A DNA stretch of 64,000 bases from a bacterium. GTDB taxonomy: Bacteria > Zhuqueibacterota > Zhuqueibacteria > Zhuqueibacterales > Zhuqueibacteraceae. Positions within the stretch are counted from its first letter, which is position 1; each line of letters starts with the position of its first letter. The notes under the pieces are model-generated. The model was given only the letters and a program-made list of their open reading frames with translations, was not told where the DNA came from and did not search any database. Position numbers and translations under genes: made by a program. Below, piece by piece: positions 37,458-58,381 of this stretch. The stretch spans positions 17,456-81,455 of the forward strand of contig JBIOXB010000195.1 in the NCBI GenBank assembly GCA_044869275.1. The letters are read 5' to 3'.

Positions 37458-38744
37458 ATGCTCAATTGTAAACATTTCGTAACAAATGCTGCCCGCGCAC
37501 TGGCTTTGGCAATGTTGCTGCTCGCGCCCTCCGCCTTCTCCCAAAAAAAACTCACGTGGACCACGAATTCAGCGGCAGCGAAAGAGAGCTTTGCGCAGGC
37601 CATCAGCGCTTTGGAGTCTTTTCAGTTTCAAGAGTTCACCAAGTTTGCGCAGAAAACCGTTGCCGCGGATTCCAATTTCGCCATGGCGCATATGCTGATG
37701 GCGGCTACCGCCGGCCCGCAGCAACGCCAAAAACACATCGACAAGTTTGCCGCGCTCGCACCCAGTGCTTCCAAGGGCGAGCAGCTTTATCTGCAAGGCA
37801 TGGTGCACTTTTACAAAAACGAAGATGACCAGGCTCTCGCCTCCTTCCAGCAGCTCAGCAAGATGCTGCCGGACGATCGCATGGTTTACATGATGCTCGG
37901 CAACGTGCAGCGGCGCAAGGGCAATTTCACCGAGGCCATCGCGGCGTTTGAGGCGGCCAATAAAATCGACCCCAGCCTGCCGCGGGCGTGGAGTTTTATC
38001 GGCGATTGCTATCTGCTGCAAGAGAAATACGACAAGGCCCGCGCCAATTACAAACAGGTTGTCAGCAAAGTCGATCCCGATGCCACGCCGTTTGGGCCGT
38101 TCTTCGGGCAGATCTGGGCCGATCTTTATGAAGGCAAACCGGATCCCGCCCTGAAAATCCTCGACGAATATATGGACCGCTATAACCGCAACGGTGCCGC
38201 CCAAGGCTTTCCGCCGGTGTGGATTTGGAACCATAAAGCCCGCATCAATTTGGAATTTGGCCGGACCGAGGAAGCGTTGCGCTGCTACGAGATCGGCTAC
38301 AAGTCCGTGCCGCCCACCTCCGCCACCCAGGTCGATAGCATTCAAAAGCTGGTCTGGCTAGGCCGCATGCATCACGGACGCGCCAGAACGCTCGCCAAAA
38401 TGGGCAAACATGAAGAAGCCTGGAAGATTGCCGAAGACGTCAAGAAGATGATCGAGGACGGCGGCAAAGAAGGCGAGCAGTATTGGCCGTCGTATCATTA
38501 TTTGGCCGGATATATCAAGCTCGAAAGCGGCGATTATAAAGCGGCCATCGAGCATATGAAGCAGAGTGATCTCACCGATCCATTTCATAAATTGCTGTTG
38601 GCGCGCGCGTATTTGAAGACCGGCGAGAAGGCTGAAGCCGTCAAGCTTTGCGAAGAAATCACCAAATTCACGACGAACAACATCGAGCGCGCACTTTCAT
38701 ATCCCGAGGCGAAAAAGATCATCGCCGCGAGCGCGTCCGATTGA
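37458..38744 (+). CDS. Exported tetratricopeptide-repeat protein
   Basis: SD ggagg, signal peptide ending AFS, multiple TPR-like helix pairs. Confidence 0.88.
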   Translation: MLNCKHFVTNAARALALAMLLLAPSAFSQKKLTWTTNSAAAKESFAQAISALESFQFQEFTKFAQKTVAADSNFAMAHMLMAATAGPQQRQKHIDKFAALAPSASKGEQLYLQGMVHFYKNEDDQALASFQQLSKMLPDDRMVYMMLGNVQRRKGNFTEAIAAFEAANKIDPSLPRAWSFIGDCYLLQEKYDKARANYKQVVSKVDPDATPFGPFFGQIWADLYEGKPDPALKILDEYMDRYNRNGAAQGFPPVWIWNHKARINLEFGRTEEALRCYEIGYKSVPPTSATQVDSIQKLVWLGRMHHGRARTLAKMGKHEEAWKIAEDVKKMIEDGGKEGEQYWPSYHYLAGYIKLESGDYKAAIEHMKQSDLTDPFHKLLLARAYLKTGEKAEAVKLCEEITKFTTNNIERALSYPEAKKIIAASASD

Positions 38745-38785
38745 ACACCGCGGGGCGCGGCATACTTGTGTGCGCAGGTGCTTGT

Positions 38786-38924
38786 GAGCCTATCCGAAAA
38801 CCCTAAAATGTCATCCCGCGGGGATCTTGGTTGACTCGGGCACAGCTCCGAGTTCAGGCCCGGGTGCCGAATTTACCAAGATTCCGCAACGGGGGGAAAC
38901 ATAATGAGGTCTTCGGATTGGCTC
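38786..38924. mobile_element. MITE-like element with 17-bp terminal inverted repeats
   Basis: gagcctatccgaaaacc ... ggtcttcggattggctc (15/17); internal hairpin atcttggt...gcac / gtgc...accaagat. Confidence 0.65.
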
Positions 38925-38941
38925 CAAGCATAATGGCCTAA

Positions 38942-39025
38942 CCCGGACAAGCCGGAAACGAAAAACTCCAAACACAAAGCCCAAAGGTGGTATTGAGTTT
39001 TGCGCTTTGGATTTTGGATTTCTTT
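38942..39025. repeat. Dispersed hairpin element, copy 2 (related to 11223-11318)
   Basis: cccggacaagccggaaac...aaacacaaagcccaaaggtggtattgagttttgcgctttggattttggatttcttt. Confidence 0.8.
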
Positions 39026-39317
39026 GCGCCATAAGCACAGATTTCACTTTTAATGGATTAACACCGTCCCAACCATACCTACACCCAAGGAGATTTTTGA
39101 TCAACTTCACCCGCGCCTTCCTCCTTCACGTTGCATGCCTCCTTATTCTCCCGTTCCAAATCGGTCCCGCATGAAGTTGCGCCTCCATTCCCCCCAATAT
39201 TTCGCTTGCACTTCTGCTATTTCAATGTTAGTGTATCTGGCAACCACCCTAGGCTAGGATGGCATGCTCATACATTTGCCAAAAGGAAGTGTCGAAGCAA
39301 ACCGGGGGTAACGCGTC

Positions 39318-40766
39318 ATGCCATCTTCAGAGATTTTATCGGCGCCGTGGAACCTTTGCCTGGGACGTTTGTTCTCCTTCTTCCTGTTGATTTTCCTGCC
39401 GAGCCGCAGCGCTGTCGGTCAAGCTCAGCGCCCGCCGTGGCCGCAGTTCTCGATCATACAATTACGGCTCGCGCCGATTCACGCCGCGGCCCGGCCCGCG
39501 AGCATGGGTGGCGCTTTCATCGGCGTTGCGGATGACGCCACTGCCGCGGCCATCAATCCCGCAGGGTTGAGTTTTTTATTGCGGCCGGAAATCAGCTTGA
39601 GCCAGGCCGGGGGATGGCATACGCGCGAGTTTGCCGTGGCCCCGGCTGCAGCATTTGACGAAACGCAGTCCGATACTGAATTCATTTTTGATCAAACGCT
39701 CGTCAATATCGTTTATCCACAGTGGGGATTCACCTTCGCGTTCTTCCGGCAGGTTGCCTCCCGTTCCGAATCCGATTTCTCACGCCAACAATTCCTGAAA
39801 ATCTCTCCTGGCCGCCGACTCAGCCTGAATGAGCAACTCGGCGCCTCGGGAAATTTTCCCGGCATTCAAGGGGAGTACACCGCGGAAGTGATTCATAATG
39901 CGTTCGTGATTGCCAAAGCCCTGCACCGGCGCTATCGCATTGGCCTGACGCTGCGCAACACCCAATTCAAGCTCCAGCTTCACGAGAAGCATTACTTCGA
40001 TCCGGCTGCTTGGCTGCAATCGGACTTCACCGGCACCGCCGCGGTCAGGCCGAATCGCATCGAGGGATTATACCGGCTGTATGAGCTAAGCGCCAAGGAG
40101 CTCAAACCCAGTTGGAGTCTCGGCCTGCTGGCAGAACTGCATCCGCACGTCACATTGGGTATCGCTTATCAGAATCTGCCGGCTTATGATCTCGAATCGC
40201 ACATTATTCTGCCTGCTTACAGCCTGCCGGACAGCACCCCCAACGACGCGCGCAACGATGAGATTCGGTTTGCGCCGCAAGAAGAAATCATACCATTCAC
40301 GCTCGATTTGCCGGACCACCTCGGCCTCGGCCTGGGCTGGAAGGTCAACAAAACATTGCTTTCCGCGGACGTGGTGCTTTACTTCACACGCACTCTGTTC
40401 CAGGGTTTGAACATGGATTTGCCGCAGGACAACATCCCTTTGAACAATGTCAAATACACCGACCCCGACGGGCGGAATGATCTCGAGACCCGCAACGTGC
40501 TGAGCTTCCACGCCGGTCTCGAACATACTTTCGTTGAGCGCAAAATCGTTCTGCCCATTCGCATGGGCTTTTACACCGAGCCCAGTTTCGCGCTGCGCCC
40601 TGTTTCGAGCGACAAGAATCTGCAGCAGGAATATCCCGAGGCCGCCACCTATCCGCACGTCACCGGAGGCTTTGGCATCATCTTCAAACAAGTGCGCTTC
40701 GAAGGCAGCGTCGACTTTTCCTCGACGTTGGTCGAAGCTATTGGCTCTGCCGTGGTGAGCTTTTGA
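39318..40766 (+). CDS. FadL/OmpP1-family outer-membrane beta-barrel
   Basis: ARPASMGGAFIGVADDATAAAINPAGL hatch motif, amphipathic beta strands, terminal Phe. Confidence 0.8.
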   Translation: MPSSEILSAPWNLCLGRLFSFFLLIFLPSRSAVGQAQRPPWPQFSIIQLRLAPIHAAARPASMGGAFIGVADDATAAAINPAGLSFLLRPEISLSQAGGWHTREFAVAPAAAFDETQSDTEFIFDQTLVNIVYPQWGFTFAFFRQVASRSESDFSRQQFLKISPGRRLSLNEQLGASGNFPGIQGEYTAEVIHNAFVIAKALHRRYRIGLTLRNTQFKLQLHEKHYFDPAAWLQSDFTGTAAVRPNRIEGLYRLYELSAKELKPSWSLGLLAELHPHVTLGIAYQNLPAYDLESHIILPAYSLPDSTPNDARNDEIRFAPQEEIIPFTLDLPDHLGLGLGWKVNKTLLSADVVLYFTRTLFQGLNMDLPQDNIPLNNVKYTDPDGRNDLETRNVLSFHAGLEHTFVERKIVLPIRMGFYTEPSFALRPVSSDKNLQQEYPEAATYPHVTGGFGIIFKQVRFEGSVDFSSTLVEAIGSAVVSF

Positions 40767-40767
40767 A

Positions 40768-43101
40768 ATGAATACGCTGGTGCACTCACTTTGTCATTTC
40801 TGCGAAAGCGGGAATCCATGGTTTTCCTGGATTCTCTGCACGACTGCTTTCACGGGCATGCCCTCAAAGAAATTTTTGGGGCACACAGCTGCGTACCCCA
40901 ATCAGGGCGGACTGCGCCAGCAGCTCCGCAAGATTTTGTTAGGCACGGTTATGGTATGTGCCCTGCTGCCGGACACTGCCGTATCGCAGTGGTATGTGCA
41001 TTATCAAGACGGACTGAAACAGCTCGACCAGGGCCAGTGGCGCGAGGCCGCACAATCGTTGCGCCAGGCCATCAATCAAAAACAAACGCCCGAGCTCAAC
41101 GCCAATACCTATGCCCTGGTCTATATCGACTATCTGCCCTACTATCATTTGGGCCGCGCCCTGTTCTTTCAGGGTGACTACGCCGGCGCTATTGAGAATT
41201 TCAATCGCTCTCTGGCTCATGGCGTGATCAAGCGCTCGCAGCATAACAAAGCTCTGTTACGGCTGCTCGAAATCGCGGAGGCTATGCAGGCGCAAAGCCA
41301 GCACAGCGGAACAAAAAGCGCCGTGCGAACCGAAGCGTGGATTGCCATGTTACGCTTAAGCCATGAACTTGGCCAAGGCCTTGCCAGAAATGAGAGCGAA
41401 ATTGATTCTGTGTTGGCGCAATCTCATTTGGACGATGAAACTCAAAAGCAGATTGTGCGCTGGTTCGGACAGCTTCTGCGGGCGGGGCCGGTTGCTCCAG
41501 CCAATTCGCGGGCGGCGTCTGCGCGACCAACCGGCCAGGCCGAGACCGCCGGCGATTCCGCGAGTATCCTGAAAAACGCAGCGATCACCGCCTATCTGCA
41601 AGGGCGTTATCGCGATGCGCTGCACCTTTTCGACCAGCTCGCGCAACGCGCGCCGGCTGAGCCCGCGCTGGCCGATTGGCAACAGCGCGTACGCTTCGAG
41701 CTTGCGCGCCTCGATCAACTCGCGGTTGAACCATTGGCGAAAACCGATACCGTGACCGTCGAGCGCTCGGCCGCGCCCATGATCAGCATTCTGGAACCCC
41801 GGCCGGAAGAAAGCCGTTTTCGCAATGAAAAACTGCGCCTTGCGGGCGTGGCAAATGACGACGTTGGCATTGCTGCGATTGAGGTGGTGGTCAATGGCGA
41901 GCCGCTGAAATTTGAGAACGACGCGGCACAATTGCATCCCGCGCGCCATGCGAATGGAACGTATCCCTTTGTGGTTGACATCCCCTTGCGCATGAACGAA
42001 AACCAGATCGCCGTGACCGCCCGCGATCTCGATCAGTCACCGCACAGCCGCACGGAACTGCGGCAGTTTTTCCGGCAACCGCCGCTGCATCACACGCCGG
42101 CTTTTTGGCTGGTGGCGGGTTCCGGGCTGCTGGTGGTGGCGGGCGCGGTCGTGGCCAATCGCCTCATCCGGTATCGCATCACGTTTGTGAACCGGTATAA
42201 TCCCTATATTGCCGGCGCGCCGATTCGCAATGAAGAGATGTTCTTTGGCCGGCAACTCTTGCTCGACCGCATTTTGCGCACGCTGCCGAACAATAGCATG
42301 ATGGTTTATGGCCCGCGACGCATCGGCAAGACTTCGGTGCAATACCAACTGCAACGCCTGTTGCGCGAGCGCCAAGACCCGGAATTCCATTTCGCGCCGG
42401 TTTTCATCGACTTGCAGGGAACACCCGAGGACCTTTTCTTTGCGCATATCATCGAGGAGGTGCGCGAACAGCTGGGCGAAGAAGTGGCGCAGGCCATTGC
42501 GGTGCCGGTGAACCGGCGGGCTTACGGCCCGCGCGAGCTGGCGAATGATCTGCGTACGGTCATCAACAAATTGCAGGAGCAACTGGCCAGGGACAACAGA
42601 GAGAACGGCAAAAAAGTGCGGCTGGTTTTCCTCATTGACGAGGTCGACGAGCTCAATCGTTACAGCGAACGCACCAATCAAAGGCTGCGCGCGATCTTCA
42701 TGAAAACTTTCAGCGAGAACCTGGTGGCGGTGATGACCGGCAGCAATCTCCGCAAGCAATGGGAAAGCGAATCCAGTCCGTGGTATAACTTCTTCGAGCA
42801 GGTGCCGATGCCGACGCTGACACGGGAAGAGGCCATGCAACTGATTCACGATCCGGTGAAGGGTTTTTTCAAGTTCGAAGCGACCGCGGCGGAAAAAATT
42901 TGGGAAGCTTCTCAAGGCAAACCATTTGTCATCCAAAAATTTTGCGTGCGCCTCGTCAATCTCGCCATTGAAAAACGGCGCCGCACCATCCTACCGGCCG
43001 ACGTCGAGTCCACGCGCAACGAAGTGTTGCAGGATACGAGCGGGCAGACGCAAGAGGTGGCGGTGAAGCTCGACATGCAATACTCGAATGACAAGACTTA
43101 A
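40768..43101 (+). CDS. TPR + Ig-like periplasmic region, single TM, cytoplasmic STAND-like P-loop ATPase
   Basis: TPR helices (YYHLGRALFFQGDYAGAIENF), Ig motif (L.GVA.DDVGI..IEVVVNG...ENQIAVTARD), TM AFWLVAGSGLLVVAGAVVA, NPYIAG.P...FFGR, Walker A GPRRIGKTS, Walker B VFLIDEVD. Start uncertain. Confidence 0.85.
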   Translation: MNTLVHSLCHFCESGNPWFSWILCTTAFTGMPSKKFLGHTAAYPNQGGLRQQLRKILLGTVMVCALLPDTAVSQWYVHYQDGLKQLDQGQWREAAQSLRQAINQKQTPELNANTYALVYIDYLPYYHLGRALFFQGDYAGAIENFNRSLAHGVIKRSQHNKALLRLLEIAEAMQAQSQHSGTKSAVRTEAWIAMLRLSHELGQGLARNESEIDSVLAQSHLDDETQKQIVRWFGQLLRAGPVAPANSRAASARPTGQAETAGDSASILKNAAITAYLQGRYRDALHLFDQLAQRAPAEPALADWQQRVRFELARLDQLAVEPLAKTDTVTVERSAAPMISILEPRPEESRFRNEKLRLAGVANDDVGIAAIEVVVNGEPLKFENDAAQLHPARHANGTYPFVVDIPLRMNENQIAVTARDLDQSPHSRTELRQFFRQPPLHHTPAFWLVAGSGLLVVAGAVVANRLIRYRITFVNRYNPYIAGAPIRNEEMFFGRQLLLDRILRTLPNNSMMVYGPRRIGKTSVQYQLQRLLRERQDPEFHFAPVFIDLQGTPEDLFFAHIIEEVREQLGEEVAQAIAVPVNRRAYGPRELANDLRTVINKLQEQLARDNRENGKKVRLVFLIDEVDELNRYSERTNQRLRAIFMKTFSENLVAVMTGSNLRKQWESESSPWYNFFEQVPMPTLTREEAMQLIHDPVKGFFKFEATAAEKIWEASQGKPFVIQKFCVRLVNLAIEKRRRTILPADVESTRNEVLQDTSGQTQEVAVKLDMQYSNDKT
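40793..40861. repeat. Degenerate GTCATTCCCGCG-type palindromic element at the 5' end of the ATPase ORF
   Basis: gtcatttctgcgaaagcgggaatcca...tggattct...ctgctttcacgggcatgc, read in frame as CHFCESGNP...WI...AFTGM. Confidence 0.65.
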
Positions 43102-43169
43102 CTTGGACGAGCGATAAGCAGGCAGGATGTTTTCGATTCACGAATTGCGCCTCACACTATTTGTGAGGC

Positions 43170-45071
43170 ATGAAACCTCAGGCGCAAGAGGGCACTATGA
43201 ATGCGTCGCCAGAACGCAATCCGTTTGTCATCGGACAATGGGTGCGCGGCGAAAAATTCTTCGGCCGGGAAGAGATTATTGCCGAGCTCTTACAAGGGCC
43301 ACGCCATGCCGTTTGGGTGGCCGCCTTGCGGCGTATGGGCAAAACTTCATTGCTGCGCGAAATGGAACAACGCATTCGGAACGATCCCCACGCAAATCTC
43401 TTGCCGCTGTACTGGGATCTCGAAGGCGCCACCAGCGATGAGACTCTGCGTGAAAGCTTGCTGGCGGCACTCGACGAAATCTCAGGCGTCTTCGCAGTCG
43501 AAACAGAATGGGAAGAACTTTCCACTCCGGAGGTGCTCCGAAAAATCCAAAAATCAGCGCGGCAAAGAGGCAAAACGCCCCTGCTGCTCTGCGACGAAGT
43601 GGAAGCGCTGTTGACGGTGGCAAAGAACGACCCGCATCTGATCGCGCGTTTGCGGCGCGTAATGCAAGGAGGCGAAAACGTGCGCTGCATCCTTACCGCC
43701 ACCCGGCGCCTGGCGCGCTTGGAAACATTTGATGCCGCCGAGACCTCGCCATTTTTGCACGGCTTCGTGCCTCCGCTTTATCTTTCGCCCATGCGCGAGG
43801 CAGAAGCGCAGCCGCTGCTCGAACGCGCGGGTTTTTCCCTGCCGGTGCAAAGAGCCTTGTACGAATTGACCGGCGGCCATCCGTTCCTGTTGCAGGTGCT
43901 GGCCAAGCGCAGCCTGGAACTCGGCGGCGTCGAAGCCGCGTTTGAAAATGTGAAGAACGATGAAACCCTGCAAAACTTCTTCGTCGTGGATTATAATCTG
44001 CTACAACCGTTCGAGCAAAGCCTGCTGCGCCGCTGCGCCACCGGCAAGGTTTCGACCGCGACGACCACCACGGACGAAGGCATGGCAAAGCAAACCTTGT
44101 TCGCACTCGGATTGATGGCCGAGCGCGACGGCATGATTTGTCCCCGCTCCCCTTTGATCAGTTATTGGCTTTCGACCCTCAAAGCCGAACCGGCGACGGG
44201 CTTCGTCACCACCGGCACCACAGGTTTTCATACCTTGCAACGCGGCGAGCGCATCGGCCCTTACGAGATTCTATACGAAATCGCGCGCGGCGGAATGGGC
44301 ATTGTCTATTGCGGGCGAGACGTTCACCTGCAGCGACTGGCAGCGATCAAACTTTTGAATCCGGAGCTGGTGCATGATGAAATCCATCGCACGCGCTTGC
44401 TGGCAGAGGCACGTGCGATTTCTCAATTGCATCATCCTCACATCGCCATCGTTTACTCGGTGGAATTCTTGGGGCAAGTGCCTTGCCTGTGCATGGAGTT
44501 TATCGAGGGACAACGGCTGGACGACTGGGCGCAACATCCACCCAAGAGCCTGAGACAGCGTTTTGAAGTGAGCCAGCAAATCACTTCGGCGCTGGCGGTT
44601 GCGCACGGCAGCGGCATCATCCACCGGGATCTGAAGCCGAGCAACATCATCGTGCGTCACGATGGCATCGGCAAACTTCTCGATTTCGGCATCTCCCGCC
44701 GACTCAGCGCGGTAACGCGCATCACCAGCACCGGACAGATTCCAGGCACACTCGCTTACATGTCTCCAGAGCAAGTCAAGAATCTCGATGTGGATGCCCA
44801 CAGCGACGTGTTCTCCTTCGGCGTCGTGCTGTATGAGTTGTTTACCGGGGTTCGCCCTTTTCTGGGCGACAATGAGCTGGCGCTGGCTTATGCCATCGCG
44901 AATGATGATCCCGCGCCGCCGTGCGGACGGCAGCCTGCTCTGCCCAAGCCGCTGGAGGCCGTCATCCTGCGGGCGCTGCAAAAGAATCCAGACGATCGCT
45001 TTGCAGAGGGCAACGCGATGTGGCAGGCGTTGCAGGAAGTTGCGGAATCATTGCCGCCGGAAGCGTCCTGA
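43170..45071 (+). CDS. STAND-like P-loop ATPase fused to a Hanks-type Ser/Thr protein kinase
   Basis: NPFVIG...FFGRE, ALRRMGKTS, LLCDEVE, TGGHPF; kinase motifs RGGMGIVY, AAIK, HRDLKPSN, DFG, GTLAYMSPE, SDVFSFG. Confidence 0.92.
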   Translation: MKPQAQEGTMNASPERNPFVIGQWVRGEKFFGREEIIAELLQGPRHAVWVAALRRMGKTSLLREMEQRIRNDPHANLLPLYWDLEGATSDETLRESLLAALDEISGVFAVETEWEELSTPEVLRKIQKSARQRGKTPLLLCDEVEALLTVAKNDPHLIARLRRVMQGGENVRCILTATRRLARLETFDAAETSPFLHGFVPPLYLSPMREAEAQPLLERAGFSLPVQRALYELTGGHPFLLQVLAKRSLELGGVEAAFENVKNDETLQNFFVVDYNLLQPFEQSLLRRCATGKVSTATTTTDEGMAKQTLFALGLMAERDGMICPRSPLISYWLSTLKAEPATGFVTTGTTGFHTLQRGERIGPYEILYEIARGGMGIVYCGRDVHLQRLAAIKLLNPELVHDEIHRTRLLAEARAISQLHHPHIAIVYSVEFLGQVPCLCMEFIEGQRLDDWAQHPPKSLRQRFEVSQQITSALAVAHGSGIIHRDLKPSNIIVRHDGIGKLLDFGISRRLSAVTRITSTGQIPGTLAYMSPEQVKNLDVDAHSDVFSFGVVLYELFTGVRPFLGDNELALAYAIANDDPAPPCGRQPALPKPLEAVILRALQKNPDDRFAEGNAMWQALQEVAESLPPEAS

Positions 45072-45098
45072 GCTCGAAGGCCGAAATTCGAAAAATGA

Positions 45099-46955
45099 AT
45101 GGGAATGATGAACACCAATACCTATAAACTCCTCGCCCGCATTCCTGCCCTGGATTTTTCGCAGACATTCGCTTTGGAAAAAGGGCGGCGCTATTTGGTG
45201 GGGAGCGCGACCATGGAACCCGGCATGCTGGTGATTACGCGCGATCGTTCCATGAGCCGGCGCCAAGCGTGGCTGGAAGTCGTGGAGGACACCTTGCGCG
45301 TGGAACGGCATCCCCGCGCGAGCCAGAAACTGAATGGGGATGATACAATCAATTGCTTGAGCCTGCAATCCGGGGAGTCCTTCACCGTTGGCGTCACCAT
45401 CTTACAGTTTATCGCAGCGTCTGATGCGTCCATGGCGCCGCACGACCAGATCCGTGAGCCTCTGGCGCAGGCTGCCATGGAAGCGACGTTCACGCTTTCC
45501 GCACGGGAGTTCTCCGCGGGCCTGCGCGACCAAGGCGTGCGCAGCTTTTGGGAGGTCATCATGGAAATGCCGGCGCTCATGCAGCAGAACAACACCACTG
45601 CGGGTTTTCTTTTGGCTTTGTGCCAGGCATTGCATTCCCATGTTTCGAGTTTGCAGGTAACGGCCTGGCGTGTGATCGAGACACAAGATCTGCCCGAGCT
45701 TTTGCCTTTGCACCATTCTGCCCTCGGCAGCGATGCGAAAGAAGTGCCCGCTACGGTCGTGCCCAGCCGGCACTTGGTCAAGCAGGCATTTGAAACGGGA
45801 GACGATACCGCCGTGGTCAGCGTGTGGAGCCGTCATCGCGCCAAGCATGCAGAACTCTCACTGCTTTCCTCCGGGGCGGCATGGGCGATGTGCGTCCCCC
45901 TCAAGCTCTCCGCGCGCGAGCAGTTTGCGCTTTATGCCACCTCCGCGGAAGTACGGTCTGGCACCGAGCCGCGCGAGGCGCAGCAATTTCTTGCCGCGTT
46001 GGGAGCCATGGCGAAGCAACATTTGCTCGCGGCACAAGCCAAGGAACGCTGGGGACAGATCGGGCAGTTTTTCTCGCCGGCTTTGCGCACCATTTTGCTG
46101 GGTGACGCGGCGCGTGTGCAAGAAGAGTTAAAGCCTGCCGAGCACGAAGCCACGATCTGCTTTTTCGATTTGCGCGGCTCCTCACGCTTGGCGGAGAATG
46201 TATACCGCCATGACAGAGACAAATCCACGGTTACCGAATACTTTGCCCGCCTCGAGAAAATTCTGGGCGAAGCAGCCGACATGGTCTTTCAGACCGGCGG
46301 AATCGTCATTGATTTCCAAGGCGACGCCATACTGGCTTGTTGGGGCGTTCCGCAGCGGCAAGAGGCGGCGGCTTCTGTGCGCCTGGCAAGCCTTGCCAGC
46401 CGCCGGATCGTCGAGCTGATGATCGAGCACGAGTGGCCATTGGGTGATGCCAATTTGCGTTGCGGCATTGGCATCACCAATGGCAAAGTGCTCGCCGGCT
46501 TGTTTGCCGCACAAAGCGGTGGCCAGGCTTTGCTCTCGAAATACACGGTCATGGGCCCACCCGCCAATCAAGCCGCGCGTCTGGAGGGCTTGACCAAAAA
46601 ATTCGGCGTGCCGATCTTGATCGACGGTGGCGTCGCGGCTGCGCTGGCCGCCGAAGCCATTTTGATCCGCCGCATCGCCGCGGCGCGACCGACCGGCATG
46701 AACCAGATTGTGCAGATTTATGAATTGGTTTTGCCGCGAGAGTTGGGCGGCACGGGCGTGAGCGAGGACGGCGTCCGCGCATATGATTCCGCGCTGGGGC
46801 TTTTTGAACAAGGCGAATTCGAAGCGGCGGCCGAAGCCATGCGTTTCGTTACTCGTGATCCCATCGAGTTGTTTCTTTCCGAGCAAATTACCGCGATGCG
46901 CCGCCACCGCGCCCCGCCCGGATGGGATGGCGTCATCAATTTGGTGTCGAAGTGA
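45099..46955 (+). CDS. FHA-GAF-class III adenylate/guanylate cyclase
   Basis: FHA-like N-terminus (DRSMSRRQA...LNG...L.SGESFTVG), GAF-like middle (AMCVPL), cyclase FFDLRGSS, FQGDA, GPPANQAARLE. Confidence 0.85.
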   Translation: MGMMNTNTYKLLARIPALDFSQTFALEKGRRYLVGSATMEPGMLVITRDRSMSRRQAWLEVVEDTLRVERHPRASQKLNGDDTINCLSLQSGESFTVGVTILQFIAASDASMAPHDQIREPLAQAAMEATFTLSAREFSAGLRDQGVRSFWEVIMEMPALMQQNNTTAGFLLALCQALHSHVSSLQVTAWRVIETQDLPELLPLHHSALGSDAKEVPATVVPSRHLVKQAFETGDDTAVVSVWSRHRAKHAELSLLSSGAAWAMCVPLKLSAREQFALYATSAEVRSGTEPREAQQFLAALGAMAKQHLLAAQAKERWGQIGQFFSPALRTILLGDAARVQEELKPAEHEATICFFDLRGSSRLAENVYRHDRDKSTVTEYFARLEKILGEAADMVFQTGGIVIDFQGDAILACWGVPQRQEAAASVRLASLASRRIVELMIEHEWPLGDANLRCGIGITNGKVLAGLFAAQSGGQALLSKYTVMGPPANQAARLEGLTKKFGVPILIDGGVAAALAAEAILIRRIAAARPTGMNQIVQIYELVLPRELGGTGVSEDGVRAYDSALGLFEQGEFEAAAEAMRFVTRDPIELFLSEQITAMRRHRAPPGWDGVINLVSK

Positions 46956-47015: not shown

Positions 47016-47717
47016 TCAATCATAGTATACCCCGCCGGTGATAGAGACGGCGAGAATGACGACGACCGCTGTGAGCGCCGCCACATTGAGCACAAATCCC
47101 GGTTTCGAGCTTAATTTGTAGCCGACATAAATGCCGCGGCCCTGGAGGCTGGGGGCAACACTGCGATACAGCATGCTGGTATAGTCGGAGGAGTATTCAT
47201 AATGCCGCGTTTGCATCAATTCGACCAGCACATTGATTGATTCCCACTCGCTGAAATTCAGGCTGGCGCCCCCCATAAAGGCCGGATACTCGAAGATTTC
47301 TCCGGCCGTGCTCCACAAGAGCGCGCCACCTGAAAGATCCAAACTGATTTTGGGACTGAGCCATCGCCGCACTCGCAATTTCACTCCGCCGCGCAGGTCG
47401 TGGCCGACGTCCCAGCCAAAAAATTGCGTGGCGCCAAGCGCATATTGCGTGTTGAGATTGTGCATGATGCCCAATTCGGAAATCAAATAATGACGTCCCA
47501 TCACCTCGTCATGAAAAACCCGCGTAGAATCCCCGAATGTTTCAATGTAAGTTCTTTGCAATGGGGGATTGATCTTGTAACTGTACCCAATATCTGTGAC
47601 AAAAAAAGTGCGGCACGCCGGCGCCGGCCGGGAAGTCGAGCAGGGTTGTGCTCTCAAGCGTGAAGAAGAGGCGAATATCCCGGTGGCGAGTGCAAGGCAA
47701 GTGAGAAAGTTTTGCAT
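47016..47717 (-). CDS. Hypothetical exported/outer-membrane protein
   Basis: Signal-like N-terminus, beta-strand-rich core, C-terminal hydrophobic segment. Confidence 0.6.
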   Translation of the reverse strand: MQNFLTCLALATGIFASSSRLRAQPCSTSRPAPACRTFFVTDIGYSYKINPPLQRTYIETFGDSTRVFHDEVMGRHYLISELGIMHNLNTQYALGATQFFGWDVGHDLRGGVKLRVRRWLSPKISLDLSGGALLWSTAGEIFEYPAFMGGASLNFSEWESINVLVELMQTRHYEYSSDYTSMLYRSVAPSLQGRGIYVGYKLSSKPGFVLNVAALTAVVVILAVSITGGVYYD

Positions 47718-48109
47718 GCGGTTACTTTCGCGTTGAGTAAAAAGCCGAGACTTGGTCCGGCCAGCAAATATGGCCGCGTTGAAGCGTTGCCGAACGAATA
47801 CTTCAAGAGTGCCGGCACTTCTAGATAAGCCAGTTTGAGTTTGGCAGTGTCGCCGCCAAATTGGGCTTCAGCGCCCTTCTGCAAATACATCGGCGCCAGT
47901 CGCAGGGACGTGTTATTCGCCAGCTGCAGCTCCACCATCCCGCCAATGCCCAGGGCGGTGAGATTGGAATAATCAATGCCATCATTGGGATCCACAGAGA
48001 GGTTGGCCAGGTTCAGCCCACCGACAATGCCGAAAGCATGCTGGGCGCGGGCGAGGGGCGCTAAAGACAGCATTCCGGCCGCAACTAACAACAAGCAAAA
48101 CCTTTTCAT
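47654..48109 (-). pseudogene. Truncated PorT-like (OMP_b-brl_2) outer-membrane barrel
   Basis: Signal peptide, GGLNLAN, YLQKG, YLEVPALLKY, LAGPSLGFLLNAK; homology-like sequence stops where the next gene's ATG (47717) begins, so the C-terminal strands and terminal aromatic residue are missing. Confidence 0.65.
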
Positions 48110-48250
48110 ACAGTCTCCTTTCAAAGTGAAGTGTGTAACTGCAGGCGTCAATCATCAACAATCTTTTGCATGTCGCCCTTTCGGGGCTTTCGGCATCCAA
48201 GCCATTAAGTTGACGCATATGCGTTCATGCGGGATTCAAAATGAGAACCT

Positions 48251-48397: not shown

Positions 48398-49915
48398 TTA
48401 AACAGAGTTGCGTTCGCCAAAATCATCGGGCTTTTGGATGCCGAGCTTGCTCATTTTGTAACGGATGGTTTGTTCGGAAATGCTCAACGCTCGTGCGGCT
48501 TGAGATTGATTCCAATCATGATCGAGCAGGGCTTGCCGCACGAGTTGTTCCTCGTATTCGGCCAGCCTTTCGTGCAAGGAGCGGCCGGCGGCCGGCAGGG
48601 CCGGGGTGATCTTGAATTTTTTGAATTCCTTTTGATAATCTGAAGGCAGGATGTCACGATGCAGAACGGTCATTTCCGGTGCCGCCAGAGTAACCAGCCG
48701 CTCGACGAAATTCTCCAGCTCGCGAATATTGCCCTCCCACACGCGCCGGCGCATAAAATCCAAAATCTCCTCGTGGAAAGACTGCGCCTGTTTATGCTGT
48801 TGGTGCACGAATTTTTTGAGAAAGTGGCGGACGAGCACCGGAATGTCTTCGCAACGTTCTGTTAGGGTCGGAACTTGAATGGGATACACGTGCAGGCGGA
48901 AATAAAGGTCTTCACGGAATTGCTTGCGCTCCGCCATCTCGCGCAAAGGCAAGCTGGAGGCGGAGATGATGCGCACGTCCACTTTGCGGAGCTTATTGCT
49001 GCCGAGAGGCCGCACCTCTCCTTCCTGCAACACGCGCATGAGCTTGGCCTGCATCTCCAGGTGGAGATTGGCAATCTCGTCCATGAACAGGGTGCCGTGG
49101 TCGGCCTCCTCCAACAGTCCCTTGCGATTGCTGGTGGCGCCGGTGAAGGAGCCTTTGACGTGGCCAAAGAGTTCGCTTTCCAGCAAATTGGCCGGAATCG
49201 CGCCGCAATCAACCGCTACAAAGGGGCCGTCGTGGCGCGCGCTAAAGCGGTGAATCGCGCGCGCAACCAATTCCTTGCCGGTTCCGCTTTGGCCTTCCAG
49301 CAGAACCCGCACTTCACAGCGGGCCGCCGCCTCCACCGCCTGCAATAATTCCAGAAATCTTGGGCTTTTTCCCAATAGCCCCACATTCGCATATTTTGTC
49401 AGCAAGGCGCTTTCCAGCAAGGGTACGGCAAAGTACTGGCGAATTTTCTGGACATTGCGCAAAAAAGGGGAGGTGATGGCGGCGAATTTTTCGAGATAGG
49501 CCAGATCATTTTCACTGAACTCACCTCCGCGTTTTTGATTCAACAACAACAACGAGCCGATCATCACGCCTTCAAGGCGCAACGCTACGCACATGACGGA
49601 TTTGATGGGTAGACCCTGAAAGTGCTTCTTGCGGAAACGCGAATCCTGGTGAATATCCGAACTGAGCAGAGAGTGCCAATTCTTGGCGACCCAACCGCCG
49701 AGTTCAACATTCAGCAGGTGGTAGTACGGCTCATGGACGATGGCACCTTCCTTAAAAATCGTTTTTACAGTTTGGTGGGTTTCCGGATTGATCATCGTGA
49801 TCAAAGCGGTGTCGGCATGCAACAAGCTCGTGGCGTGCCGCGCCACCAAGCGCAGGATCTCGTCAAAATTATTCTGCTGGCCCAGAGCTTCGGCCAGAGC
49901 CACGAGTCTTTCCAT
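48398..49915 (-). CDS. GAF-domain sigma-54 enhancer-binding protein (Fis HTH)
   Basis: GQSGTGKE, ESELFGHVKGSFTGA, FMDEI, FREDLYFRL, WEGNIREL, NQSQAARAL; ATG 49915 coupled (TGATG) to the upstream gene. Confidence 0.95.
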   Translation of the reverse strand: MERLVALAEALGQQNNFDEILRLVARHATSLLHADTALITMINPETHQTVKTIFKEGAIVHEPYYHLLNVELGGWVAKNWHSLLSSDIHQDSRFRKKHFQGLPIKSVMCVALRLEGVMIGSLLLLNQKRGGEFSENDLAYLEKFAAITSPFLRNVQKIRQYFAVPLLESALLTKYANVGLLGKSPRFLELLQAVEAAARCEVRVLLEGQSGTGKELVARAIHRFSARHDGPFVAVDCGAIPANLLESELFGHVKGSFTGATSNRKGLLEEADHGTLFMDEIANLHLEMQAKLMRVLQEGEVRPLGSNKLRKVDVRIISASSLPLREMAERKQFREDLYFRLHVYPIQVPTLTERCEDIPVLVRHFLKKFVHQQHKQAQSFHEEILDFMRRRVWEGNIRELENFVERLVTLAAPEMTVLHRDILPSDYQKEFKKFKITPALPAAGRSLHERLAEYEEQLVRQALLDHDWNQSQAARALSISEQTIRYKMSKLGIQKPDDFGERNSV

Positions 49916-52900
49916 CAATTCTCTCCGGCATATTCCTTCTTCCACATTTCATACCTTCCGGCATATTCGCGTATGAAATCGGCAACGGTGCTGTCGTAAC
50001 TCAACCGTTCTTGCGCGGCGTGATTGCGCCCATGAATCTCCAGGCGGCGCGCGAGCGGCGGCAAAGCAATGTAGCCTTTTTCAATGGGCACGGCTTGGCC
50101 CTCCACGCGCGCGGACGGCGATTCAATGAAGCCCGGCACGCGAAAAAGAATACGCTTGGGCGGTGTGCGCCATTGGTGTTGAAAATCGATGGTTAGTTTC
50201 TCCGGGCTGATCGTCGCCTGCACGGAATGTTTACCCAAAGCGGTAACAACCTCGCGGACTTCGAGGCGATTGTCACTCAAAAACCAAGCCGGAGAAATGG
50301 CTTCGAAAATTCGCAAATCGTGGCCTTCTGCGTGCAGCAACAGGTCTCGCAGCAGAGTGATGAACTCTCCGTTGGCGCCTTGTAGGGCGACATTCTTGTC
50401 CTGATTTTGGCGGCCGCCCCAGGCATGACATCTATCGCCGATCAACAGATGGGTGCCGCTGGTGTGCAAGAGCAGAGCATAAACATCTTGCAACGCGGTC
50501 TCGCTGTCTCCGCCTGGCAATACCGCATGCGCAAGATTGAAAGTCATTCCGGCATCCAGCCATTGGCCGCTGCGCGTGGCCAGCCCCTCTTCGAAACGGC
50601 TGCGCAACGATTGCAGAGCCGGTTTAGCTCGTTTGTCGCCGGGAGGCAAAAGTCTCGCGGGATAAACCGCTAGAGCGGTCATCTTCTCATCCTCTCCTTT
50701 TGCCGGATAAACCCCTCCCTCTGTTTTCTTCTTGCCGAAGGCTTCGAGGCGCGCGCGAAAATCCTTTTCAATATTTGAGTAAAGTTTTTCCGCCAGGGAT
50801 TGAGTCTGCCGGTCACCGGCAAGCTCCGCCAGATTCTGGGCCTGCTGCAAACCCTTCAGCGCCAGGGGCAGATCTTCGGAGCGCATTTGTCCGCTGTTGT
50901 TTTCCTTGCGGTTCTTCTCCAGGCCTTGAAGCGAGAGACGAACTGCCGGCATGGCCGCCGTCAACAGGGCGCGATCATCCGTTATCTGCACGTGCTCCGC
51001 CAGCGCGGCCATCAGCGTTGACCAATCGCTGACGGTATAGTTCCCGGGATACTTTTCCATCACGCCATTCGCGGATTTGGGTCCGCCCATGATCCTTTGA
51101 CAGCTGCGCAGCAGAATTTGCCCCGCCAGCTCATGATAGCCCGCGGCCTCGAAGGCGCGTGCGGCGGCGCTCCAATGCGCCAGCGGAAATTGATACCAAG
51201 GGTTTTCGGAATCTTGCATGGCGCCCGGGCCATAGAAAATGGCGTTCTCGATTAATTGCGCCTGCCAGATCTGATTGACTTTGTCTTCCGCTACATTGAG
51301 CGCCGCGCCGTTCTGCAAAAATTTTTGCCACTCGCGCACGGCATCTTCGCGCAAACGGTCACAATCGAAAGTCAGGCCCTGGGCCGCGCGCATGCGCTCC
51401 GAGTTCACTGGCTTCTGCGGCACACACAAGCTCACGCGCTGAATTTCCCCCGGCGCGAGCGTGAAGGAGTATTCCATCATGCCCACGATGCTTTCCGGCT
51501 GCTGTGCGGTTCCCATGGGAGAAAATTGCACGCTGGTGGGCAGGGCAGAAACCGAGCATAGCACCTCCTGATTGCGATGCACGAATTTTCCCACGAGTCG
51601 ATAATGCCAGAGCGGATCGAAATCCCCGTGCGCCGGCAGGAGCTGCTCCGAACCACGGAAACGCATACCCACCGCGAAGCGTGTGGAGCGCGGGGTACTG
51701 GTAGGGTTGATGAGCGTAACCTGCAAGTAATTCATCGCTTGCTGCGCTATCGTATCGGCGATCGGCAGGGCAAAAGCCTCGAAGCGATAATCAACACCAT
51801 CTTGCGCCGTACGATAGTTGATCACCGGAAAGTAACCCAGCAACAAAGTCTTTTTATGACAAAGCAAAGGCTGCGAGGCTGCTCCGCCATAAAACGTGAA
51901 TTCCACGGCGCCGGTGTAGAGACCGCCTTCCGGCGTGATTTGCGCCGATACGCCGTTTTCCAGGGTACCGATGAAGGCCGAGGGCTGTGCGAAGTATTCG
52001 AACGGCACGTTGGCGTCGTGGTTGGGATCTGCCATCGTACGCGCCACCGGCGGCGCGATTGCCTGCACCAAATTTCTGATGACGATATTCTTTCCCAAGA
52101 TCCCGCCGGGTTGTTCTCTGCCATCGACGCGCAGCGCGAGCGTGTTGTCCTTGCCGACGTGCACGTGCGGCGTAAGATCAAAAACCCTTAGATCGTTTTC
52201 AGGCATCTCCGGAAGATTGGCCGCACCCAGTGGTTTGCCATTCAACCATAGGGCATAATCGCCTGCGACTTCGTTCAAGCCCAGCCACATTTTTTCGCCG
52301 CGCCAAGAGGCCTCGGGCTTGAAATGCGTGCGATACCACGCCACGCCGCGATACCCGGCGTAACCTTGCCTCTCCCAAGAAACTCCCGGCCGCAGCAACG
52401 GCCATGATTTATCCGGCCTCCCGGCCTCGCTCCATTTTTCCGCATCGCCTTGCAGCAACGAGTCAGGCTTGAACGACCAGGCGGCGGCCAGCGGCAATAT
52501 TCGCTCTGGCAGCATTTGGAAGCCGTCGAGATAGAAGCGCACCTGCTCGCCGGGATCCAGCGCGATCGCGCCTTTCCAGCTCGGCGGCCAGATGCGCGGC
52601 AAATCATTGTGCTCGAGCGCGAAGACATTGATGATTTCCGTCAAAACGATCTTGCTGCTCGACGCGTCCGCGACGAAATCCAGCCGCACCAAATCTTCCG
52701 GCGTCGTTCCTGCCGGCATCGGCAACGCCGTTTGCCGTACCACCGACTGCTTCGCACGAATCACCAAACGCGGCGACCAAAGATGCGAAGCATATTCCCC
52801 AGTTTGGCGGCGAAATTTGGCGATAAAAAAGCCGCCACACTCGGTTTCTGGATTTTGCGGATGGGCGGCGAATTGAATGAACAAATAATTTTTCAAATCC

Positions 52901-55022: not shown

Positions 55023-56105
55023 ATGATACGTGTGATGTTTCTATTTCTGACAGTAATTTTCGTCACGCTGGCGCCGGCGCAAATAGAGACCACGCCGAAA
55101 GTGAGTTGGGGCGGTTTTGTCGATGGCTACTACGCCTTTGACTTCAACCGCCCGGAGAATTTTGATCGCGCCTTCACTACCCAACCCGCGCGGCACAACG
55201 AGTTCAATATCAATCTTGCCTTTGTGGAAGCCAAGCTCGAAAATGACCGCATGCGCGGCCGCGTTGCTCTGCAAGCCGGCACTTCGGTGCAATCCAATTA
55301 TGCTGCTGAGCCGAGCATTGGAGCCATCAGCGGTGACGATCTTGCGCGCCACATTCAAGAAGCCGTTGCGGGTGTGAAGCTGGCAGAAGGTTGGTGGGTG
55401 GATGGTGGAGTCTATTTTTCCCATCTCGGATTTGAGAGTTTCATTTCGCGCGACAACTGGACGTACACGCGCTCCCTGGCTAGCGATTATTCTCCTTACT
55501 ATCAATCCGGGGTGAAGTTGAGCGCGCAACTTTCACCGAAATTGTCCGCGCAGTTGCACGTGATGAATGGCTGGCAAATCATCTCTGAAACCAATAGCGG
55601 TAAAGCCCTCGGTTTGCAGCTTTCCTACAAACCCTCGCCGGCGGTTTCACTCACGTATAATAATTTCATCGGCAACGAGGCCAGCGACGATGCGCCAAGT
55701 CAAAGGCGTTTTTTCAACGATGTGATTGCGCATTTCACCGTCTCTGGATCGCTGCAAGTGGCAGCGATCCTCGACTATGGCACGCAGAAAAAAGCCTCAG
55801 GTGGAACCGCAGATTGGTACGTCGCGACATTATTGGGCCGTTGGCAGCTCAGCGAAAAAGTGGCAGCCATTGGCCGCATCGAATACTTCAATGATGACGA
55901 ACAAGTGATTATCGCCACTGGCAGCCCGAATGGATTTCAAACCGCCAGCGCATCATTCGGCATCGACTTCAAACCCGCTGCTCAAGTCACATGGCGGACG
56001 GAAATTCGTGGGTTTTCTTCAGATGACGCAGTTTTTCCGAAACGCAACAGCGGCAACGTCCAGGATGATGGTTTTATTGTGACTTCGCTTGGCCTTTCAC
56101 TGTGA
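55023..56105 (+). CDS. Outer-membrane beta-barrel porin (BBP2/DUF1597-like)
   Basis: GFVDGYY.FDFNRP, HNEFNINLA, G.ESFISRDNWTYTRSL, PYYQSG, NGW. Confidence 0.85.
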   Translation: MIRVMFLFLTVIFVTLAPAQIETTPKVSWGGFVDGYYAFDFNRPENFDRAFTTQPARHNEFNINLAFVEAKLENDRMRGRVALQAGTSVQSNYAAEPSIGAISGDDLARHIQEAVAGVKLAEGWWVDGGVYFSHLGFESFISRDNWTYTRSLASDYSPYYQSGVKLSAQLSPKLSAQLHVMNGWQIISETNSGKALGLQLSYKPSPAVSLTYNNFIGNEASDDAPSQRRFFNDVIAHFTVSGSLQVAAILDYGTQKKASGGTADWYVATLLGRWQLSEKVAAIGRIEYFNDDEQVIIATGSPNGFQTASASFGIDFKPAAQVTWRTEIRGFSSDDAVFPKRNSGNVQDDGFIVTSLGLSL

Positions 56106-56127
56106 ATGGTGATAGGCTTCTTTCACT

Positions 56128-56251
56128 CTCGTTCCCATCCTCACGGTTCGGGATGGGAATAGCGGTTGGACGTTCTGCGTCGAATTGGGCATTCCAATAA
56201 AAAGGATGCTCAGCCTCCAGAAATGCGTTCCAACGGAGACCGTTGGAACGA
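56128..56251. mobile_element. REP/MITE-like double-hairpin element
   Basis: ttcccatcc/ggatgggaa and cgttccaacgg/ccgttggaacg hairpins; element ends tcgttcc ... ggaacga. Confidence 0.65.
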
Positions 56252-56291
56252 ACTACGAAAAAAAATGACAAACTACTGTAAGGTGAAAATC

Positions 56292-56378
56292 ATGGATTTC
56301 CTATACCTCGGCTGCGTCTTGCTGTTTTTCGCTCTTTCTTGGGGGTTGGTGGTCTTTTGCGAACGATTGCAAAAGTAA
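56292..56378 (+). CDS. 28-aa hydrophobic peptide upstream of kdpF
   Basis: SD aaggtg, MDFLYLGCVLLFFALSWGLVVFCERLQK. Confidence 0.7.
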   Translation: MDFLYLGCVLLFFALSWGLVVFCERLQK

Positions 56379-56388
56379 GGAGACAATC

Positions 56389-58360: not shown

Positions 58361-58381
58361 AAACCTAAAGGAACATTGACT

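Follow-up and report, generated by a model that had tools for sequence, protein, structure and literature searches.

The window, a 64,000-nucleotide stretch of DNA from a bacterium of the family Zhuqueibacteraceae, contains four adjacent genes for an outer membrane (OM) barrel, two ATPases, one of them fused to a protein kinase, and a nucleotidyl cyclase, and it raises the question of whether their products form a single pathway across the cell envelope and, if so, what that pathway is for. From comparative sequence analysis, we hold with somewhat better than even confidence that they belong to a receptor-ATPase signaling module in which the barrel would act on a receptor ATPase (A1), A1 on an ATPase-kinase (A2), and A2 on a sigma-54 activator, with the cyclase as an extra. 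The proposal rests on genes, domains, motif conservation, co-occurrence, and domain swaps.

Organization of the locus

The four same-strand open reading frames (ORFs) span positions 39318-46955, with intergenic gaps of 1, 68, and 27 bp; ORF coordinates and domain searches confirmed that all four ORFs, and the domains ascribed to them in an earlier note on this DNA, are real. The features are as follows.

37458..38744, + strand: exported TPR protein, upstream of the barrel; same position in one related locus
39318..40766, + strand: barrel gene; 482 aa; FadL/BamG/PorV-superfamily OM barrel
40768..43101, + strand: A1 receptor ATPase (gene 2, P0002); 777 aa
40781..40877, no strand assigned: dispersed repeat element, part of the gene 2 leader and in its reading frame
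43170..45071, + strand: A2 ATPase-kinase (gene 3, P0003); 633 aa
45099..46955, + strand: FHA(degenerate)-GAF-class III cyclase (gene 4, P0004); 618 aa; accessory
48398..49945, - strand: GAF-AAA+-HTH sigma-54 activator, 3.3 kb from the A2 kinase

The exported TPR protein may form part of the signaling unit. Promoter and terminator scans gave counts at chance level (3 versus 4.3 and 13 versus 13.9).

Domain composition of the barrel and the two ATPases

The barrel scored 23.6 bits against Pfam Toluene_X, under the cut-off of that family, and a profile built from 28 orthologues matched BamG (9hiv; E, 5e-10), TodX, and FadL. Its signal peptide stops before the invariant Gln35, and residues 54-96 form a hatch motif, so that the protein has both the hatch motif and the barrel profile common to the FadL superfamily (FadL, TodX, PorV, and BamG) and the original description of a FadL-like barrel stands. 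Unlike those proteins, it appears to be coupled to a receptor ATPase. It may act as a channel or as a scaffold.

Domain, helix, and fold searches agree that A1 is exported and carries TPR and Ig regions joined through one membrane helix to a cytoplasmic P-loop ATPase. A signal peptide with cleavage before Gln74 (read by eye) precedes a periplasmic TPR region (residues 74-316), an Ig sandwich (residues 338-436), a single hydrophobic transmembrane (TM) helix (residues 445-463), and a STAND/PF01637-type ATPase (residues 474-760) in which Walker A and Walker B are intact. The class assignment comes from the fold search, in which 2qen was the best Foldseek match (E, 5e-8), and from ATPase_2, which scores above the Pfam cut-off. 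Codons 5-37 of gene 2 (40781-40877) belong to a dispersed repeat, of which the genome has about 22 further copies; the ATG one base past the barrel stop agrees with orthologue starts, and since the repeat gives gene 2 a 73-residue leader, the working start may lie further downstream.

A2 is soluble and joins a second ATPase of the same type (residues 14-340, with intact Walker A and B; profile-profile probability of relationship to the A1 ATPase, 99.7) to an RD-type Ser/Thr kinase (residues 365-625). As had been proposed, the latter is a complete Hanks kinase, with the Gly loop, Lys, alphaC Glu, HRD, DFG, and activation-loop Thr, and HRD and DFG are kept in all 21 A2 proteins that carry a kinase. 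Both ATPases look active, judging from their motifs: the Walker A Lys (K521 in A1 and K58 in A2), the Walker B Asp-Glu, and the following Arg (R641 and R162, respectively) are invariant in 36/36 A1 and 34/34 A2 sequences, the GxRRxGKT and hhhhDE motifs occur in both proteins, and both have a GKP/GHP lid motif (GxP type) with an invariant Pro.

Conservation of a three-gene core

The barrel, A1, and A2 occur together in 17 of 41 related genomes, which are not independent observations, and 22 of these genomes have none of the three (A1 was found in 19, A2 in 18, and the barrel in 18); the two co-occurrence gaps fall in incomplete genomes (G018 and G010). Genomes in which the set is split still keep all three genes: the barrel adjoins A2 with A1 elsewhere in three genomes (G004, G007, and G013) and adjoins A1 with A2 elsewhere in another (G031). 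Neither the kinase nor the barrel is universal: 13 of 26 complete A2 proteins have no kinase, and 8 of 33 loci, some of them truncated by the end of a contig, have no barrel. Loci from KSB1, Calditrichota, and Acidobacteriota share a conserved trans-envelope unit in which the barrel is combined with a membrane receptor ATPase and an ATPase-kinase. The gene-neighborhood evidence called for by the earlier note thus supports the barrel, A1, and A2 but not the cyclase, which is present in 1/33 loci and adjoins the operon in 2/32 genomes of the phylum that have A2; only three of the four genes form a conserved unit, and the cyclase is an optional add-on. We found no account of the three-gene module in the literature, where a mention in a gene-neighborhood table is possible.

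The cyclase as a probable accessory output

Model and structure searches found FHA, GAF, and class III cyclase folds in P0004 (Z, 13.2, 12.0, and 21.6, the last to CyaB); the FHA and GAF domains are detected with models and profiles but not in Pfam or PDB searches with the single sequence. The metal-binding Asp pair and the transition-state Asn and Arg of class III nucleotidyl cyclases are present (D357, D409, N490, and R494), each conserved in 48/48 aligned cyclases. The base-selecting residues are guanylyl-like (D405, K481, and Y482). D405 aligns with Glu488 of Synechocystis Cya2 (2w01) and is Asp in 44/48 aligned cyclases, none of which has the adenylyl cyclase Lys at this site, and K481-Y482 align with the Lys-Tyr of the second loop of Cya2, with Lys and Tyr in 44/48. 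Since Asp replaces the ATP-selecting Lys and the Lys-Tyr pair is Cya2-like, the enzyme probably makes cGMP. P0004 differs from Cya2 in having Asp rather than Glu, an FHA-GAF input rather than CHASE2-TM, and, at the second base site, Thr (adenylyl-like) where Cya2 has Gly; the P0004 family has Thr, Ser, Gly, or Ala there, with Gly in 11/48.

The FHA-GAF-cyclase architecture was therefore described correctly in the earlier note, but the FHA domain lacks the canonical phosphothreonine residues. GR has become GS, SxxH has become SRRQ, and Ala occupies the Asn site (by eye); the first change and the His-to-Gln replacement are found in 28/28 close orthologues. The GR, SxxH, and NG motifs have been named as required for phosphothreonine binding (PMC3162421), and their loss weakens the step in which the kinase recruits the cyclase through FHA and phosphothreonine, which we regard as doubtful. 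A strict four-gene cascade running from the barrel through A1 and the A2 kinase to FHA-phosphothreonine recognition, with the cyclic nucleotide as the main output, is decidedly unlikely. It would account for the tight co-orientation in the window, which is kept in genome G001 and metagenome locus L153, for the recurrence of the cyclase behind a second kinase-STAND operon, and for the invariance of FHA Ser53 and Arg54 (CT664, the best FHA fold match, likewise has GS), but it sits poorly with the altered motifs, with the rarity of the cyclase beside the operon, and with an L153 cyclase that lacks most of the GAF region. Cyclase loci were retrieved by alignment search, single-sequence search having found nothing. 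The placement of the cyclase is not random, though. Paired STAND-kinase operons adjoin 11 of 18 close cyclase copies (4 at an operon of the window type and 7 at a different one), 6 of the 18 have no STAND neighbor, and more distant cyclase loci have none (0/45). In the signaling module that we favor, the cyclase would be a further output of ATPase-kinase pairs, restricted to certain lineages; its product would most likely be cGMP, and it would be coupled through direct phosphorylation or phosphate-independent docking, not through the classical recognition of phosphothreonine by FHA.

A sigma-54 activator as the commonest linked candidate output

The output set proposed earlier omitted the commonest linked output, a sigma-54 activator present in 21/33 loci. 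Twelve divergently placed activators form one clade (support, 92). Of the six activators of this GAF type in genome G000, five have a Hanks kinase within 3.4 kb, compared with 1 of 37 other activators that has one within 6 kb. The activator at 48398-49945 belongs to a kinase-associated clade and is a candidate substrate or output of the A2 kinase; it falls outside the clade found next to the barrel at other loci and lies on the opposite strand, behind two unrelated ORFs. Sigma-54 promoters showed no excess upstream of the barrel (14/28, against 14.0 expected), and a stricter pattern gave 0/11.

Family architecture and alternative roles

The A1 ATPase family has 331 representatives at an E value of 1e-30. 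Of its best 150 relatives, 133 have a long N terminus, and in 109 of these a hydrophobic helix lies just ahead of the ATPase; 21 of 35 hand-picked relatives (mostly long, non-TPR members of the 150) have Reg_prop propellers, with Y_Y_Y listed for 6. Reg_prop/Y_Y_Y is the sensor of hybrid two-component kinases, and the A1 ATPase is thus found after it in the place where a histidine kinase normally sits. One protein, P0165, is a single chain of propeller, TM helix, A1, and A2, and in Anaerolineae, A2 comes after propeller-A1 in 7 of 8 ATPase-holding loci, with no barrel. The position of the A1 ATPase after propeller sensors, together with the A1-A2 fusion, favors receptor signaling over defense.

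These arrangements also bear on a structural or transport machine, in which a PorV/BamG-like scaffold barrel and a TPR/Ig periplasmic bridge would serve an ATPase pair that powers export or assembly, with the kinase and cyclase as loosely attached regulators or hitchhikers. Among solved structures the barrel profile best matches BamG, a scaffold with no known transport role, the fold neighbors of the A1 ATPase include AAA+ motors and loaders, and the barrel and the TPR domain of A1 occur without ATPases in 4/20 loci. We nonetheless consider such a machine very unlikely, given the two-component-type sensors ahead of the A1 ATPase, the Anaerolineae loci without a barrel, and the swapping of A2 C-terminal domains (a kinase, a short helical tail, or, by eye, a transglutaminase-like domain), and the loci examined contain no conserved substrate or channel gene.

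An envelope-sensing immunity or conflict system, in which A1 would respond at the barrel to adsorbing phage, contact with a predator, or a damaged envelope, the ATPases would oligomerize like an NLR, and the kinase and cyclase would trigger dormancy or death, has more to commend it but is still unlikely. The ATPases belong to the STAND class, two-gene STAND operons have been predicted to counter invaders (PMC8195603), TIR, CHAT, or SIR2 domains occur on sister STAND pairs of the phylum, the TPR domain of A1 is also fused to caspases, in one case with a CHAT gene and a relative of the barrel alongside, and Pucsar uses cGMP as an antiphage messenger. Against this, PADLOC returned only generic domain matches for all four proteins (membership in PD-T4-6, mad6, PycC, and Avs1b was rejected on this ground) and for 12 of 122 neighbors of 20 loci, among which a defense-island context was not seen, a count made without a background rate. 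In most relatives the genes are single copy per genome, they are fixed beside ruvAB in eight Acidobacteriota loci, neither a toxic nor a cyclic nucleotide monophosphate (cNMP)-binding effector was found among the cyclase neighbors scanned, and variability in the A1 sensor region exceeds that of the ATPase only modestly (61 versus 80% identity). Where the earlier note left signaling and defense side by side, family architecture speaks for signaling, and defense is less favored.

In the favored signaling module, the barrel would admit, bind, or display an envelope signal and contact the periplasmic TPR/Ig region of A1. The resulting change would pass through the single TM helix, and the cytoplasmic ATPase of A1 and the soluble ATPase of A2 would form a mixed oligomer, in which clustering may activate the A2 kinase by trans-autophosphorylation, as the biology of RD kinases suggests. 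The kinase would then act on the GAF sigma-54 activator, as linkage suggests, and change transcription.

Comparison with known systems

The A1 ATPase shares its fold with STAND proteins of the PF01637/MNS type (PABY2304; 2qen). Differences are that A1, a type I membrane protein, has its sensor in the periplasm, that A2 carries a Hanks kinase, and that the pair is linked to an OM barrel. The Npun2340/2341 family, said to have been described by Leipe and coworkers in 2004, reportedly consists of adjacent paralogue pairs, as in A1/A2. Hybrid two-component kinases and other single-pass receptors resemble A1 in having an outside sensor, one TM segment, and a cytoplasmic transmitter, but the A1 transmitter is a STAND ATPase that would depend on a paralogous partner, and the core has no phospho-Asp receiver.

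The nSTAND2 two-gene operon (Kaur et al. 2021; PMC8195603) likewise pairs STAND modules, predicted to hetero-oligomerize, each with a conserved arginine and with the effector on one partner. One of its ATPases has eroded NTP-binding motifs and bears the effector, GT4 or HEPN (PMC8195603), whereas in the window Walker A and B are intact in both ATPases, the effector is a kinase, A1 spans the membrane, and neither P0002 nor P0003 matches nSTAND2 (PF20702) at an E value of 0.1. A second operon found here (system B) has an nSTAND2 domain (160 bits), yet its NTP-binding motifs are intact.

The label NLR-like holds only loosely. Avs and bacterial NLR proteins also combine a STAND switch with TPRs, but Avs proteins are single cytoplasmic chains of effector, STAND, and sensor (PMC10907252), whereas in the window the sensor is N-terminal and extracytoplasmic and the effector is on the second ATPase; the Avs1b match is only 22 bits. 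Pycsar and Pucsar share a class III cyclase with the window, possibly also cGMP, but require an adjacent cNMP-binding TIR or TM effector, and the PycC matches (16-46 bits) are confined to the catalytic domain.

Significance

A bolder and rather doubtful proposal is that the locus represents a widespread, undescribed signaling class in which receptor and soluble STAND ATPases would form a ligand-triggered mixed oligomer in place of a histidine kinase and response regulator, with interchangeable inputs (barrel plus TPR/Ig, propeller, or PEGA) and outputs (Hanks kinase or sigma-54 activator); here it would also include an OM-to-cGMP route through a repurposed, phosphate-blind FHA domain and a new Asp-type guanylyl cyclase. 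We know of few worked-out cases of bacterial cGMP signaling, and P0004, a small soluble enzyme with an unusual Asp, has a predicted cGMP output that is open to quick assay. The core is testable as well, since the cultured Holophagae Sulfidibacter and Acanthopleuribacter (L034 and L041) carry the ATPase pair. Bacterial transmembrane signaling is commonly divided among histidine kinases, chemoreceptors, anti-sigma factors, receptor Ser/Thr kinases, and membrane cyclases; a receptor whose ATPase transmitter pairs with a second ATPase would, if our reading is correct, be an addition to them, from a large ATPase family, and STAND proteins, whose study now centers on immune sensing, would also serve as envelope receptors.

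Architecture of the cluster

The open reading frames encoding the barrel, the receptor ATPase A1, its partner A2, and the cyclase were found in the order and with the gaps described in the earlier note, and each is a single-copy gene in the genome of the window, G000; relatives at 52 to 69% identity came from genomes that include KSB1- and Zhuqueibacter-titled ones.

Features of the window
38773-39067, dispersed repeat upstream of the barrel (up to 73 matches)
39318-40766, gene 1, barrel
40768-43101, gene 2, A1, TPR/Ig-TM-ATPase receptor
43170-45071, gene 3, A2, partner ATPase fused to a Ser/Thr kinase
45099-46955, gene 4, cyclase (P0004)
47016-48151, minus strand, two short ORFs in the cyclase-activator gap; one of them, 165 aa long, is a partial OMP beta-barrel
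48159-48237, dispersed repeat near the activator (about 5 matches)
48398-49945, minus strand, GAF-AAA+-HTH sigma-54 activator

Gene 1 encodes a FadL-superfamily barrel: the lone sequence gave weak Pfam and PorV matches, and a profile of 28 barrel sequences matched BamG, TodX, and FadL. Since the FadL homologue BamG can serve as a scaffold, according to PMC12578637, a channel role for the barrel is not established. In A1, a signal peptide (ending, as read by eye, at Gln74) is followed by TPR helices and an Ig sandwich, and a single TM helix leads to the ATPase; the best fold match of A1 is the archaeal ATPase 2qen. Its codons 5 to 37 are occupied by a further dispersed repeat; the 1-bp coupling to the barrel gene, although ancestral (loci L014 and L018 have the identical junction), may therefore have ceased to mark the working start. 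The A2 ATPase is a paralogue of A1 (31% identity; probability 99.7) and is joined to a complete RD kinase, and FHA, GAF, and cyclase folds were all found in gene 4. The slot at 47016-48151 is filled by different genes in the related locus L013 and is thus a variable site. Elsewhere in the window, kdp potassium pump genes with a BBP2 porin gene on either side (55023-63486) and a 1364-aa protein with a type IX secretion tail (27108-31202) are ordinary.

Conservation of the barrel, A1, and A2

A2 follows A1 in 28 of 33 loci around A1 relatives, three of the other five stopping at a contig edge; a barrel precedes A1 in 25, a sigma-54 activator lies within 21, and the cyclase is present in 1. The interpretation in the earlier note is supported in part: the four genes do not form a conserved set. 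Full-length orthologues of A1, A2, and the barrel occur in 19, 18, and 18 of 41 related genomes, with all three in 17 and exceptions in G018 (59% complete) and G010 (82%), and in the other 22 none of the three was found; locus and genome sets overlap, kin are not independent, and counts from separate searches are not additive. The barrel adjoins A2, with A1 elsewhere, in G004, G007, and G013, and adjoins A1, with A2 elsewhere, in G031; joint persistence despite such operon breaks indicates that the unit is three genes. The kinase is present in 13 of 26 complete A2 proteins, from KSB1 and Calditrichota-type loci, and missing in 13, all Acidobacteriota.

Of 20 loci selected by their A1-type TPR domain, 4 also pair it with the barrel in the absence of ATPases, and the closest barrel paralogue (268 bits) is followed by two such TPR genes, with kinase genes flanking.

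L246:1686-13065, close barrel paralogue, with two proteins carrying that TPR domain behind it and a kinase-TPR gene on each side; no ATPase

By context alone, these pairs support a barrel-TPR partnership. The same TPR domain is fused to caspase domains (L253:845-4823; L256; L260), in one case with a barrel on one side and a CHAT gene on the other; elsewhere it is fused to CsgG-like domains, and small outer-membrane barrels come next.

The ATPase pair and its exchangeable parts

All 36 A1 and 34 A2 sequences keep the Walker A Lys, the Walker B Asp-Glu, and a downstream Arg; motifs are thus intact in both partners, unlike those of the two-gene nSTAND2 operon, in which one partner is eroded (PMC8195603). 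Searched against 1.84 billion representatives, the A1 ATPase returned 331 relatives at E 1e-30. Among the best 150 of these, 133 have a long N terminus, with a hydrophobic helix directly N-terminal of the ATPase in 109 and an A1-like TPR domain in 74. Reg_prop propellers, the sensors of hybrid two-component histidine kinases, were present in 21 of 35 relatives examined by Pfam, which were hand-chosen and mostly long non-TPR proteins; one of the 35 carried SIR2. In P0165, a single sequence, a propeller, a TM helix, and A1-type and A2-type ATPases form one chain, and in the Anaerolineae propeller form an A2-type gene comes next in 7 of 8 ATPase-holding loci, without a barrel. From these forms it follows that the irreducible core is the receptor ATPase plus the partner ATPase, with input and output swappable.

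P0081 and P0131 also join A1 and A2 but look like read-through errors. More STAND pairs occur in the same phylum (L236, L237, L238, L240, L064, L065, L072, and L073), one partner having a multi-TM receptor, GAF, HEAT, or TPR region and the other TIR, CHAT, or nothing.

The sigma-54 activator as a candidate output

With duplicate loci omitted, 12 GAF activators that lie divergently to the barrel group in a single clade (FastTree support 92), and a sister clade holds the window activator. In G000, a Hanks kinase lies within 3.4 kb of five of the six activators with this GAF, the sixth having a contig end 1.5 kb away, whereas among the 37 other sigma-54-type ATPases just one has such a kinase within 6 kb; 4.4% of the genome is that near a kinase, and the activators are paralogues, not independent cases. 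Because no sigma-54 promoter was found upstream of the barrel, we infer that the activator is a downstream target and not a regulator of the operon itself. In Holophagae-type loci (L034-L041 and L043, e.g., L035 near 7330), a sigma-54 -24/-12 motif faces a divergent two-gene operon in 8 of 9 loci versus 0.13 expected, the pattern having been chosen after an earlier promoter scan was seen. This operon, which encodes a 660-aa protein of unknown kind and a transglutaminase-elicitor protein, with the sigma-54 activator downstream, is a candidate target operon.

An optional cyclase

The catalytic residues of the cyclase are invariant (48 of 48). Where CyaC and CyaB have their ATP-selecting Lys, 44 of 48 sequences have Asp (Asp405), which aligns with Glu488 of Cya2; Lys481 and Tyr482 correspond to the Lys-Tyr pair of that enzyme. 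E488K makes Cya2 an adenylyl cyclase (PMC5995499), and its GTP preference is set by Glu with a supporting Lys, together with Gly and Tyr (PMC6005667). Judged from these residues, the product is probably cGMP, a moderate confidence set by the shorter Asp at the base-selecting site, where Cya2 has Glu, and by Thr at the second site.

The earlier note had the activated kinase recruit the cyclase, naming FHA domains as readers of phospho-Thr. Such a step is made doubtful by degenerate motifs: each of the 28 close orthologues has GS in place of GR and Gln in place of His. Ala occupies the expected Asn position, and GR, His, and Asn-type motifs are those needed for phosphothreonine binding (PMC3162421). 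Distant relatives often retain GR (19 of 48) and His (15 of 48). Weak phosphate binding may persist, since Ser53 and Arg54 are kept.

Within the phylum, 7 of 167 genomes carry a cyclase orthologue, these seven belonging to one family, and 32 carry A2. The cyclase comes next after A2 in G000 and G001 only, L013 and L075 being arranged as in G001; in G003, G012, G014, and G016 it lies behind a different operon, system B (G001 and G014 are unpublished genomes).

L056:8533-13967, system B paired-STAND operon; also L057, L058, L059, L060, L061, L150, L152, and L147, same family

System B encodes a STAND-TM-PEGA protein, an exported protein, and a kinase-nSTAND2 protein. Its receptor is reversed relative to A1 (N-terminal ATPase, TM, outside PEGA/beta region), the exported protein (310 aa, helical then beta-rich, Phe at its end) has no Pfam match, and Walker motifs are kept in both ATPases. 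Within the family, 8 genomes have system B and 6 of these carry the cyclase, versus 1 of the 11 that lack the system. Of 18 close copies (fragment L157 left out), 4 go with system A, the barrel-A1-A2 operon: three adjoin it, and the fourth is convergent at a distance of two ORFs. Another 7 go with system B, five of them adjoining it, one lying behind an additional kinase gene, and one convergent. The next 6 go with neither, and for the last 1 the contig is too short. B-adjacent copies form one clade of the cyclase tree and A-linked copies lie in separate branches of its unresolved base, which argues for at least two associations with the two ATPase-kinase operons, two clades being largely unlinked; the A and B kinases are only 40% alike. 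Among 45 more distant cyclase loci, such a STAND gene was found in none and a kinase in 16. By its distribution, the link is recurrent but optional.

An A-adjacent cyclase at L153:1409-2797 lacks about 140 GAF-region residues in frame, by natural deletion or assembly error. Distant FHA-GAF Asp-type cyclases (L082, L092, L098, L103, L106, L115, L117, and L120) often sit beside a family of kinase-domain proteins of 1100-1700 aa.

Signalling or defence

As the best model we cautiously favor a signalling module built on the receptor ATPase, whose output runs through kinase and sigma-54 and in which the cyclase is accessory. The STAND class of the ATPases, the TIR, CHAT, caspase, or SIR2 domains seen in sister pairs or fusions, and the existence of cGMP-based defence (Pucsar preprint) would suit a defence system instead, but PADLOC matches of the four window proteins are generic only, locus neighbours gave any match in 12 of 122 cases, nearly all generic domains, the position beside ruvAB is fixed in 8 Acidobacteriota loci, no lethal or cNMP-binding effector was found, and the partners of the module are regulatory. 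Characterised Avs proteins differ in being single chains with a C-terminal sensor (PMC10907252). Our literature search found no paper on the barrel-A1-A2 module. Paired STAND ATPases are a theme already known; what the window adds is a guanylyl-like cyclase that is optional, has a degenerate FHA domain, and is common to two different ATPase-kinase operons.
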